IMG/VR virus record: IMGVR_UViG_3300028025_000556
Coordinates: 1-27,658 of that record
Direction: 5' to 3' (one strand)
Origin: a virus
Lineage: Duplodnaviria > Caudoviricetes
Length of the DNA: 27,658 bases
Shown here: one piece after another, positions 1,896 through 10,211 of the stretch
Layout: every line of letters starts with the position of its first letter
Position numbering within the stretch: the first letter of the stretch is position 1
Position numbers and translations under genes: made by a program
Notes under the pieces: model-generated
Told to the model about the DNA's origin: nothing
Database searches by the model: none
Seen by the model: the letters and a program-made list of their open reading frames with translations, nothing else

Positions 1896-1935
1896 CTGTA
1901 AGGTTATTAGCCAACTAATATACAATCTGCCTTAT
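1868..1935. promoter_or_regulatory. Three 14-bp pseudo-palindromic operator-like sites
   Basis: ATAAC-TTAC-CTTAT (1869-1882), ATTAG-CCAA-CTAAT (1906-1919), ACAAT-CTGC-CTTAT (1922-1935). They overlap both divergent promoters. Confidence 0.6.
1921..1926 (+). promoter_or_regulatory. -10 element for the Cro-like gene (probable leaderless transcript)
   Basis: TACAAT 7 nt before ATG 1934; no Shine-Dalgarno; no good -35. Confidence 0.55.
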
Positions 1936-2092
1936 GGACAAAAACAAGTTTATTGCACTAGCTGGCTCACAAGATGAGCTTGCCAAATTGTTAGGCATAA
2001 GCCAAGCGGCTGTGTCTCAATGGAAAACTGTGCCTCAAGCAAGAATTTGGCAATTAAAACTTTTGAAACCTGAATGGTTTGACAAGGCTTAA
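1934..2092 (+). CDS. cro: Cro-like HTH transcriptional regulator, 52 aa (absent from ORF track)
   Basis: MDKNKFIALAGSQDELAKLLGISQAAVSQWKTVPQARIWQLKLLKPEWFDKA*; classic HTH SQxELAKLLGISQAAVSQW; first rightward gene at the divergence point. Confidence 0.9.
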   Translation: MDKNKFIALAGSQDELAKLLGISQAAVSQWKTVPQARIWQLKLLKPEWFDKA

Positions 2093-2108
2093 AAAATATG
2101 TTTATAAT
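2079..2108 (+). promoter_or_regulatory. Consensus sigma70 promoter for the structured leader and replication operon
   Basis: TTGACA (2079-2084), 18 nt, TATAAT (2103-2108). Confidence 0.8.
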
Positions 2109-2511
2109 GAAATCGTCTGAGTGGCATCGGACGATGAAAGCAATTGAGAACCCCATAGATTTTTGTGTGGTCTTGCCTGACAACAGGCGAACTTTTGATT
2201 GCTTTCAATCGTTTGTTGTTGCTCTCGCCAAGAGCCAAGACCACAGAGCAATTTATGGGGTTTTTTGCGTTTGGCGGCTGTGCAATGCGGTACGTCGGTG
2301 GTTGCATTTAGGGATACCCTGTTACACGAGCGAACTAAAGCAGGGGCGGTGGGCGAAGGATAGAGCCGAGTGGTTTGGACGCAAGTCTAATAAGTCTGTC
2401 TTATGCGATGCGATGACATGGCTCCGAAGGGAAGTTATCCACAAGCAAAGCGATTGCTGTTTCAATACGGTAAGGCTTTGCTTTGCTCAAACAATCACCA
2501 AAGGGAAGTAA
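2098..2511 (+). CDS. Possible leader ORF spanning the structured RNA (start 2098 or 2134)
   Basis: Open for 137 codons; TAA 2509-2511 abuts ATG 2512 in the same frame. No recognisable domain; may be non-coding. Confidence 0.3.
   Translation: MFIMKSSEWHRTMKAIENPIDFCVVLPDNRRTFDCFQSFVVALAKSQDHRAIYGVFCVWRLCNAVRRWLHLGIPCYTSELKQGRWAKDRAEWFGRKSNKSVLCDAMTWLRREVIHKQSDCCFNTVRLCFAQTITKGK
2112..2266 (+). ncRNA. Structured leader/attenuator RNA ending in a U-tract
   Basis: Hairpin 2112-2120/2127-2135; long stem 2149-2161/2250-2262 and 2166-2175/2236-2245; inner stems 2179-2190/2209-2220 and 2221-2225/2231-2235; T6 at 2261-2266. Confidence 0.7.
2435..2443 (+). promoter_or_regulatory. DnaA box
   Basis: Exact TTATCCACA about 70 bp upstream of the replication gene. 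Confidence 0.5.
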
Positions 2512-2916
2512 ATGCAAGACTTATTCGGCAATGAGATACCTGAACAACAAAAGAAAACAGACGAAGGCTTTGATGAATTCTGGTCTGTTTACCCTAAGTG
2601 CTTCAGAAAAGGTGAGAAGGCTGCTTGCAAGAAAAAGTGGGCTGAGTCTTACTACTTTTCTCAGAAGCACATCATCTTAAAACACGTTCAATGGATGGCA
2701 ACCACAACGGCCTGGTTAAAAGATAACGGGGCATTTATTCCAGCCCCTAAGGTTTATTTAAACCAACAGCGATGGGATGGCGCTGACATCCCTGATGTAA
2801 AGCCTAAAGACTTGATAGACCCCGCCCTGGCTAAGATTGAAGCTGATTCAAAGAAGGCCGCACCGATGCCTGATCACATAAGACAAAAAATTGCACAAAT
2901 GAAAGGTAGGTCATGA
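2512..2916 (+). CDS. Replication protein resembling the C-terminal domain of phage replisome organisers, 134 aa
   Basis: FDEFWSVYPK...K...W and FIPAPKVYLNQQRWD motifs; lambda O position; no N-terminal HTH visible. Confidence 0.7.
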   Translation: MQDLFGNEIPEQQKKTDEGFDEFWSVYPKCFRKGEKAACKKKWAESYYFSQKHIILKHVQWMATTTAWLKDNGAFIPAPKVYLNQQRWDGADIPDVKPKDLIDPALAKIEADSKKAAPMPDHIRQKIAQMKGRS

Positions 2917-8147: not shown

Positions 8148-10211
8148 ATGGCACGAATACCCAACGACCAACGCCTTGCAAACTTACACGCTGAAGCACT
8201 GCGGCAGTTCAATGATATACAAACTGCGCTGCGGGATGAGCGTCTGCAATGCTTACAAGACAGGCGTTTTTACTCGTTGTGCGGCTCTCAGTGGGAAGGC
8301 CCATTGTGGGATCAATACGAAAACAAACCCAAGTTTGAGGTCAACAAAATCATGTTGGCGGTCATTCGCATCGTTAACGAATACCGCAATAATCGCATCA
8401 CCGTTGACTATGTAAGCAAAGACGGTACTGAGAACGACAAACTGGCAGAAGTCTGCGATGGCCTTTATCGTGCTGACGAACAAGCATCGGTCGCTGATGA
8501 GGCTTACGACAATGCTTTTGAGGAAGCTGTTGGCGGTGGCATTGGTGCATGGCGACTGCGTACTGTTTACGAAGACGAAGAAGACCCAGAGAATGAACGC
8601 CAGCGCATCAGGTTTGAGCCAATCTTTGATGCCGACTCTAGCGTATTCTTTGACCTGAACGCCAAGCGGCAAGATAAGTCAGATGCCAAATATGCTTTTG
8701 TGGTCAACAGTATGACCCGTGAAAGCTACAAAGAAATCTACAACGATGACCCAACTGATTGGCCTAAAATCATTCACCAATACGAATTTGATTGGGCAAC
8801 GCCTGATGTTGTGTTTGTGGCTGAGTACTATAAGGTTGAGGAAAAAACCGAGGTAATCCGTATATTTGAAGCCATTGATGGCACTGAGGAACGCTATACA
8901 GCCCAAGACTTTGCAGACGATGAAATGCTAGAAGAAACCCTGATGGCGGTCGGCACAAGGGAAGTTCGCCAAAAGCGCATCAAGCGTATGCGGGTTCGCA
9001 AATACATCATGTCTGGCGGCAAGGTGCTGGAAGATGCAGGCTACATTGCAGGCAAAAACATCCCCATTGTGGTGGTCTACGGCAAGCGATGGTTTGTGGA
9101 TAACATCGAGCGTTGCATGGGTGCTGTGCGCTTGGCTAAAGATGCCCAACGCCTGAAGAATATGCAACTGTCCAAGCTGGGCGAGATTTCAGCCTTGTCC
9201 AGTATTGAGAAGCCCATCATGACCCCAGAGCAAGTGGCTGGGCATCAGGTAATGTGGGCAGAAGATAATCTGAGGGATTACCCTTATCTGCTGATTAACC
9301 CTGTCACTGGTGCTGATGGCGGCACACAAATCAGTGGCCCTGTGGCTTATACAAAGTCGGCACAAATCCCACCAGCTATGGCGGCTTTACTTGCCATCAC
9401 TGAACAGGATATGCAGGACATTTTGGGCAACCCACAAGGGGCTGACAAGATGATTTCAGGCGTATCAGGCAAAGCGGTTGAGATGATTCAAACCCGTGTG
9501 GATATGCAGACGTTCATTTACATGAGCAACTTTGCCAAGGGCATGAAGCGATGTGGTGAGATTTGGCTCGGCATGGCAAAGGAAATCTACACCGAAGACA
9601 AGCGCAAGATGAAAACTATTGCCGCTACTGGTGAGGCTGGAATGGTCGAGTTGATGCAGCCCACAATTGACACCGAAACTGGTGCTGTGGTGATGGCAAA
9701 TGACCTATCTAGTGCCACATTTGATGTGGTTGCTGAAGTTGGCCCATCCTCTAGCAGTAAACGTGCGGCAACTGTCAGGGCTTTGACAGGAATGCTTCAG
9801 ATCACCCAAGACCCAGAGACAGCCCAAGTGCTGACTGCAATGGCAATGATGAACATGGAAGGCGAGGGCGTTGGGGATGCAAATGCTTATTTCCGCAAGA
9901 AGTTACTGCGGATGGGCGTTGTTCAACCAACAGACCAAGAGGCAGAAGAACTTATGGCAGAAATGCAGGGCAAGCCTCAAGACCCGAACGCAATGTATTT
10001 GCAGGCCGCAGCCGAGAATGAAATGGCAAAAGCCGCAAGAGCAAGAGCTGATACTGTTGAAACTGTAGCAAGCGCAGAACTTAAACGGGCGCAAACGCTA
10101 GAGACTTTGGGCAAGGTTGAAGAGACAGCACAGAGCATGGCGATGACCAACGCCCAGGCAGTGCAAGAAATTTTGCAAGGTCAGATTGTGCAACCTGTTG
10201 CGAATCAGTAA
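8148..10211 (+). CDS. P22-like portal protein (gp1)
   Basis: 687 aa after terL; DRRF...GSQW, FEVNKI, AFEEAVGGGIGAWR, GAVRLAKDAQRLKN, SGKAV; Q/A-rich helical C-terminal barrel. Confidence 0.95.
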   Translation: MARIPNDQRLANLHAEALRQFNDIQTALRDERLQCLQDRRFYSLCGSQWEGPLWDQYENKPKFEVNKIMLAVIRIVNEYRNNRITVDYVSKDGTENDKLAEVCDGLYRADEQASVADEAYDNAFEEAVGGGIGAWRLRTVYEDEEDPENERQRIRFEPIFDADSSVFFDLNAKRQDKSDAKYAFVVNSMTRESYKEIYNDDPTDWPKIIHQYEFDWATPDVVFVAEYYKVEEKTEVIRIFEAIDGTEERYTAQDFADDEMLEETLMAVGTREVRQKRIKRMRVRKYIMSGGKVLEDAGYIAGKNIPIVVVYGKRWFVDNIERCMGAVRLAKDAQRLKNMQLSKLGEISALSSIEKPIMTPEQVAGHQVMWAEDNLRDYPYLLINPVTGADGGTQISGPVAYTKSAQIPPAMAALLAITEQDMQDILGNPQGADKMISGVSGKAVEMIQTRVDMQTFIYMSNFAKGMKRCGEIWLGMAKEIYTEDKRKMKTIAATGEAGMVELMQPTIDTETGAVVMANDLSSATFDVVAEVGPSSSSKRAATVRALTGMLQITQDPETAQVLTAMAMMNMEGEGVGDANAYFRKKLLRMGVVQPTDQEAEELMAEMQGKPQDPNAMYLQAAAENEMAKAARARADTVETVASAELKRAQTLETLGKVEETAQSMAMTNAQAVQEILQGQIVQPVANQ

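Follow-up and report, generated by a model that had tools for sequence, protein, structure and literature searches.

A phage leader RNA family with fast-changing pairing keys, probably a self-terminating attenuator of replication genes

What controls entry into the replication operon of a phage in which no CI-type repressor can be found? The window analyzed here (the whole stretch of DNA, a 27.7-kb linear virus record that is 80% complete) raises this question. It carries genes for a P22-like portal and coat and a Cro-like protein, leftward genes for Sak and YqaJ, and rightward genes for a methylase, RusA and NinB; a CI-type repressor was found neither in the window nor in related records. An earlier note, made from the sequence alone, had placed ahead of the rightward operon a switchable RNA with the logic of the phage C4 and CI RNAs, in which two loop elements would each match sites both upstream and downstream in the same transcript. 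RNA-based immunity is understood in a small number of temperate enterobacterial phages (P4, P1/P7 and N15). On the basis of the analysis below, our preferred reading, to which we give a probability of about 0.6, is that this leader RNA terminates itself and attenuates the downstream replication operon in a key-specific manner. The features of the locus are listed in Table 1.

Table 1. Features of the leader region in the window
Feature	Position	Strand	Remarks
Cro-like HTH gene	1934..2092	+	PF14549 P22_Cro, E=1e-11; final codons overlap the promoter
Sigma-70-type promoter TTGACA-N18-TATAAT	2079..2108	+	12/12 consensus positions; predicted start ~2114-2116
5' hairpin H1	2112..2135	+	3/4 consensus pairs covary; loop 2121-2126 is site a1
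Site b1, variable upstream target	2136..2146	+	605/642 cells paired with b'; pairing reaches over 2131-2149
Core RNA: long stem P1 (13+10 bp) closing a three-way junction	2149..2262	+	Predicted terminator stem
Hairpin P2	2179..2220	+	Loop 2191-2208 bears the variable key b' (2196-2206); 4/8 consensus pairs covary
Hairpin P3	2221..2235	+	Loop CGCCA is element a'; 100% paired
U-tract after P1	2261..2272	+	Predicted intrinsic termination site; at least 6 T in 8 in 100/107
Module D1, second structured module, exchangeable	2270..2511	+	Covarying hairpins in 23 sequences
Short replication-initiator-like gene	2512..2916	+	Opens the rightward operon; then methylase, RusA, NinB

The RNA element, its family and its locus

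The fold of the element in the window reached -83.6 kcal/mol (z -6.35), which none of 200 shuffles equaled. Much of the architecture described in the earlier note was recovered, including a full-consensus promoter directly before the element, a long stem (2149-2161:2250-2262 and 2166-2175:2236-2245), a junction with two hairpins, a U-tract at 2261-2266, and all four short words that had been named as loop partners, each where it had been placed. Two details needed adjustment. The 5' hairpin with loop GTGGCA, described as 9 bp long, is present, but it would have only 6-7 bp if transcription starts ~7 nt past the -10 box, as inferred here. Likewise, the word ATTGC is in place, but the family consensus has an open loop of ~18 nt or more there rather than a small loop of that sequence.

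Homologs were collected by scanning viral contigs with the neighboring protein and two DNA patterns, which gave 239 instances, 128 of them distinct and 107 remaining after de-replication. The first DNA pattern was estimated to occur in ~340 stored stretches of the viral collection, and a similar pattern in ~310 stretches of metagenomes, where each of the contigs listed (80 of 120) was at most 38 kb long. Across the family, the consensus fold of 38 pairs was formed in 98.6% of cells, compared with 91.7% after shuffling and 35-54% in slid registers. Covariation across related phages, which the earlier note had named as a check, was observed, with double changes in 19 of the 38 consensus pairs; within P1 they affected 10 of 22 pairs, and 98.4% of cells were paired. 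The 5' hairpin, the long stem, the two inner hairpins and the U-tract were all conserved, and the -10 box at fixed spacing matched at 6/6 positions in 68 homologs, 5/6 in 33 and 4/6 in 6. An alternative hairpin at 2173-2190, which appears in the early fold of the window, had weak alignment support and is not relied on (80.6% paired vs 78.0% shuffled, and 83.6% in a slid register). We also observed a longer variant (L039:2023-2232), in which the 5' hairpin is the same, a key is present and the P2 region is extended; it scored 56.7 bits with RNA model R1.

A second suggested check was a search with the Rfam models of C4-type RNAs. C4, c4-2, c4-a1b1 and isrK gave no match in the window at gathering score or at E up to 10, and none in 20 and 14 related loci, nor did any other relevant Rfam family, whereas the controls scored 74.9 and 60.8 bits (P4) and 68.8 and 51 bits (P1). 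No match to the region was found by blastn among GenBank phages and PLSDB plasmids. A pattern scan of GTDB gave 23 hits, of which 22 lacked the element and one was real but located on a 2-kb MAG contig that is possibly misbinned. We found no description of the element in the literature; two short motifs were absent from the six files of PMC10690425 that were searched, and the motif may be among the 10,006 candidates of that paper. The phage RNA family is real and apparently uncatalogued.

With regard to its location, the position ahead of a replication operon held for most of the loci compared: an initiator-like gene came next in 34 of 40 motif-selected loci and was not so placed in the other six. 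Of 18 loci with long flanks, 11 had a Cro-like gene 5' of the element. Promoter and RNA were instead placed after the terminase gene in three loci, G007 among them, and thus the unit is portable; in G007 (L331:13611-16262), the promoter, switch and D1 are flanked by an intein-containing terminase gene and a 59-codon ORF, and the phage's own initiator and DnaB genes are distant. Downstream of the U-tract there were at least five exchangeable non-coding modules, with D1 in 59 of the 107 homologs, D2 in 20, D4 in 10, D5 in 8, D3 in 7 and others in 3, and one key occurred with different downstream modules. A consensus scan of the plus strand revealed no promoter of their own for module D1 and the following gene.

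A DNA-level element, either an origin or a cruciform beside a truncated initiator gene, could also be considered at this position. The next gene (2512-2916) matches only positions ~170-248 of phrog_9474 and phrog_270, a stretch of ~80 residues in the middle to late region of these longer initiator profiles, and an exact DnaA-box word occurs at 2435. However, many G-U pairs were retained in the family alignment, the element is enclosed by promoter and U-tract on a single strand, the DnaA-box word at 2435 was kept in just 5 of 23 D1 modules, and the element of G007 is remote from replication genes. Such a role at the DNA level therefore appears very unlikely.

Several additional observations were made on these loci. 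A search limited to shorter forms gave 368 relatives of 73-235 aa for the gene at 2512-2916. Another exact DnaA-box word lies at 9095. D1, which has no Rfam match, contains a direct repeat whose copies (2424-2434 and ~2498-2508) change together, the second lying over the likely ribosome-binding site. The Rfam int-alpA RNA scored barely above gathering score at the end of D2-type leaders (L047:2179-2252 and L083:706-778). Accessory genes in relatives encode a zeta-toxin-like kinase domain (L333:6460-7377), Cpn10 (L323:9939-10193) and a PAPS reductase domain (L325:6519-7460). A 137-codon frame at 2098-2511 was rejected as a conserved gene; it had no Pfam match, the frame was closed in 28 of 107 homologs and its spacing varied modulo 3.

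The variable upstream key

Two upstream sites, a1 in the hairpin loop and b1 behind it, are complementary to two unpaired elements further downstream. For the second pair, the long complementarity reported earlier was reproduced as a 19-bp helix with one bulged base between 2131-2149 and 2193-2212 (-19.3 kcal/mol); it reaches into the arms of H1 and P2, in line with the proposed competition with the 5' hairpin and an inner stem. The match of the ATTGC loop to the upstream GCAAT (2140-44) was likewise borne out by the family. With both segments anchored on conserved columns, b1 and b' covaried: 605 of 642 cells were paired at the six positions that vary most, vs 316±12 shuffled. Entropy in the b1 columns reached 1.9 bits. 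The result persisted on the 61 unique keys (340 of 366 paired vs 182±8 shuffled, and 101-187 of 366 in slid registers). In a partly overlapping metagenome set, with the best register picked alike for real and shuffled pairs, 81 of 81 elements had 7/7 pairs, vs 9% shuffled. The viral and metagenome sets united contained 76 distinct keys. These keys were nearly orthogonal: cognate pairing was -12.4 and non-cognate pairing -3.0 kcal/mol, and only 69 of 3660 non-cognate pairs came within 2 kcal of the cognate. Loops paired with their own upstream segments at -13.4 and with those of others at -6.7, and the complement of the loop 5-mer was present upstream in 72 of 107.

The rate at which the key changes was unusual. 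Among 158 RNA pairs differing at two or fewer of 115 scaffold bases, doubly changed pairs amounted to 1.74 of 6 in the key and 0.17 of 6 in variable P1, a difference of about ten times; at least two such pairs were found for the key in 83 and for variable P1 in 2 of these near-identical RNA pairs. On the scaffold tree, the key columns had 187 changes vs 86. Since key pairs change far faster than P1 pairs, we infer that there may be selection for new specificities, which would in turn point to pairing between molecules.

The other pair behaved differently. The upstream partner claimed for the CGCCA loop (TGGC, 2122-25) was confirmed in that both the GTGGCA loop and the CGCCA loop were nearly invariant, partly by construction because the search pattern fixes the loop. 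A loop-free pattern recovered eight further real elements among 35 rows, and in the two of them with a changed core (L207 and L264) a1 had changed upstream in compensation. At the same site, some relatives (L016, L017, L349, L434, L451 and others) possess a sister element with another fold, in which a long stem followed by a U-tract contains a bulge that can pair with the loop of a 5' hairpin, and in which the a key varies instead. Its a key was complementary in 49 of 49 cases (one chance row dropped) with four keys, the commonest being the P4 key; neither Rfam nor RNA model R1 matched it.

The same pairings could be accommodated by a static, doubly pseudoknotted RNA, in which b1:b' and a1:a' form in cis together with P1-P3. 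Its transcription would stop at the U-tract every time, and it would have a separate function. P2 plus the b helix is about as long as P1, so that, by the rules that govern RNA junctions, docking in cis was estimated to be geometrically possible. The b helix mostly measured 8-14 bp and the linker to P1 mostly 1-7 nt, and a TTT just before b' was invariant, all of which would suit such a structure. We regard it as unlikely, however. It leaves unexplained why the key changes about ten times faster than the variable pairs of P1, and it also leaves unexplained why A-C never occurs at 2131:2212, the invading pair whose formation is incompatible with H1 and P2 (0 of 106; Fisher 2e-10, uncorrected for kinship, with p=0.5 and only three independent pairs in a kinship-aware test). 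In addition, read-through is needed because the downstream module and gene lack a consensus promoter of their own.

Alternatively, the element might be a cis-only attenuator, in which the speed of the polymerase or a protein sets read-through as the two folds compete on the growing transcript, no RNA acting in trans. Every folding result reported here is intramolecular and would agree with it. Inverted repeats can also be re-matched by template switching, which would speed compensation in the absence of selection. On the other hand, template switching should also hit the arms of P1, yet these change far less, and a switch confined to cis gives no reason for 76 nearly orthogonal keys. Consequently, this explanation also appears rather improbable to us, and a key-specific attenuator that is reached in trans is preferred.

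Downstream sites and comparison with known systems

The downstream half of the earlier proposal, in which TTGGCG (2271-76) and GCAAT (2282-86) were second targets as in canonical C4/CI systems, did not survive comparison. Both words are in the window, and each would be uncommon by chance within 30 nt (0.02 and 0.07, respectively); furthermore, TTGG follows the U-tract in 90 of 107 homologs. However, the longer forms TTGGC and TTGGCG were present in only 33 and 12, respectively. GCAAT, which lies inside a hairpin of the exchangeable module D1, stayed unchanged when the loop changed, and the complement of the loop 5-mer occurred downstream in only 6 of 107. Cognate pairing to the 150 nt downstream was no stronger than non-cognate pairing (-8.09 vs -8.23, p=0.83; 105 of 107 elements). 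All 46 sister elements compared had their 6-mer upstream, and three of them had it downstream. The P4 and P1 controls showed both upstream and downstream sites, and the element had no Rfam C4, c4-2, c4-a1b1 or isrK match. Thus, the downstream sites do not covary, and a canonical C4/CI system with a second target pair is hardly tenable here; TTGG is possibly a 4-nt remnant site. As for the claimed C4/CI-like switch as a whole, the arrangement of an a1 loop followed by a single-stranded b1 in pairing order was upheld, and the two-target logic was not. Because the downstream targets fail here and are present in P1 and P4, the element is not a member of the C4 family. It is a one-target variant that is predicted to terminate itself, and probably a key-specific attenuator.

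The closest parallels are found in P4. As with the P4 CI RNA (C4, RF01695), seqA (isrK, RF01394) and seqC, the RNA shares strand and transcript with its target. Both have an a1 hairpin loop followed by a single-stranded b1 and a long closing stem, both lie ahead of replication genes, and the words aUUGGcA of isrK and UGCCAA of C4 resemble the a pair of the element. This layout together with the similar a words suggests a distant kinship with P4 CI/seqA. The differences are considerable: the P4 targets lie at -160/-144 and +92/+123, whereas the element has no downstream target; a' is placed on an unpaired junction strand in C4 and in a hairpin loop here; the tetraloop hairpin of C4 is missing, though a long stem and three-way junction are present; and the U-tract directly follows the closing stem, with no terminator between b1 and the core. 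Neither our RNA model nor the Rfam C4/isrK models score the other, and, unlike P4, the carriers have no integrase that could be found. P4 CI RNA ends transcription of the replication genes early (PMC4825925).

The C4 RNA of P1/P7 (RF01695) and c4-a1b1 (RF03163) also have two unpaired elements, with a1/b1 just after the promoter. C4 is cut by RNase P; its targets are a2/b2, which precede icd-ant, and its effect is to block translation. By comparison, the element has no a2/b2 and no CCA or GGW end, and its likely output in our model is intrinsic termination; no Icd-like or antirepressor match was found among the ORFs scanned. The specificity of C4 comes from a variable loop (PMC5320573), and c4-2 is a distant homolog of C4 (PMC5737381).

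Attenuation in the leader of a replication gene is also found in plasmids. The antisense-RNA transcriptional attenuation of pT181 is comparable, and in pIP501 RNAIII binds the nascent repR leader and causes premature termination (PMC4981023). RNAIII, however, is made from a convergent promoter on the opposite strand, so that complementarity is automatic, whereas in the element regulator and target share a strand and a new key requires two mutations. A consensus scan found no minus-strand promoter in 2100-2500. IsrK of Gifsy-1 has short and long forms from one promoter, and RNA-RNA pairing switches the long form (PMC4825925). In IsrK it is the target-like 5' part that is terminated and that activates translation, whereas the element has no terminator after b1.

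A proposed attenuation cycle and its carriers

The proposed cycle would begin on the nascent RNA, in which b1 would pair with b' and invade the flanking stems; covariation of the two segments was observed, and the timing is predicted. The 5' strand of P1 would then be trapped in a loop, the terminator would form too late and the polymerase would read through. A part of the transcripts would nevertheless stop at ~2266, giving a 150-nt RNA that shows b' and a' in loops. This RNA may bind a1/b1 of a new transcript in trans, and the bound transcript would fold straight to the three-way junction and U-tract and terminate, producing more of the RNA. In other words, cis pairing of b1 and b' would be a kinetic antiterminator, and binding in trans would set up a key-specific positive feedback. 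Only matching keys would respond, so that a phage could silence its own genome copies and incoming phages that share its key, and escape variants with new keys would be favored.

Folding of growing transcripts was compatible with this order of events. The b helix was part of the MFE structure in 97 of 107 homologs once b' emerged, in 94 after P2 and P3, in 71 after inner P1 and in none at full length, where inner P1 was present in 107 and outer P1 in 104. For nested refolding, the barrier between the two folds had a median of 32 kcal/mol, which is an upper bound. The features of a predicted terminator, stem and U-tract, were conserved, and an alternative competing fold was predicted. Several points speak against the cycle. 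First, the terminated fold is ~14 kcal/mol more stable at full length, and thus read-through would have to depend on kinetics. Second, the terminated RNA keeps its own a1/b1 and could mask itself or dimerize if the leader stays in place. The sequence does not point to the RNase P processing seen with C4, since CCA followed P1 in none of 128 sequences and P1 begins with AACC rather than GGW. The small number of independent pairs behind the A-C avoidance at 2131:2212, the loci in which the module does not lie ahead of the replication gene and the missing integrase, resolvase, ParA and prophage copies (see below) also weigh against it.

We also examined 23 related virus records, of which 20 had the element, two the sister element and one the longer variant; 20 were at least 90% complete and six had terminal repeats. 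None of the 23 contained a tyrosine integrase, and no S24 domain, resolvase or ParA was found in any of the 24 records when the window was included. There were five sub-cut-off matches to HTH_3, the one in the window being its Cro-like gene. Thus, the lack of CI appears to be general among carriers, and so does that of integrase. No prophage copy was found in the GTDB pattern scan or in searches of Burkholderiaceae-related genomes. The RNA model had no hit in 151 genomes, a sample of one Burkholderiaceae family, and the DNA search had none in 401 genomes of the order of Burkholderiaceae; it should be noted that this host is a guess and that both results show little. Among named records, the nearest is that of an uncultured spring phage, whose Sak is 74% identical. 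As neither integrase nor prophage copy was found, classical lysogenic immunity is not established. The predicted attenuator could replace the CI protein, as the earlier note had supposed; any immunity that the RNA confers would operate in a carrier state, among copies of the genome or between phages that infect together.

The family extends the logic of RNA immunity to uncultured phages for which the searches revealed neither an integrase nor a CI-type repressor, in a system reduced to one target and a built-in predicted terminator, and it raises the question of how such phages persist or exclude each other. As a tentative broader interpretation, a 150-nt RNA may have taken the place of both the CI repressor and integrase-based lysogeny in a large and apparently non-integrating phage group. 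This RNA would serve simultaneously as target, antisense regulator and terminator, and its password of 7-10 nt would be under escape selection (at least 76 types). Co-infecting phages would then fall into incompatibility groups encoded by RNA, and their leaders would form a natural library of orthogonal terminators triggered by RNA. With dozens of natural lock-and-key alleles on one scaffold, the rules of specificity are directly testable in a matrix of cognate and non-cognate pairs, and the natural keys could serve as orthogonal RNA-controlled terminators.
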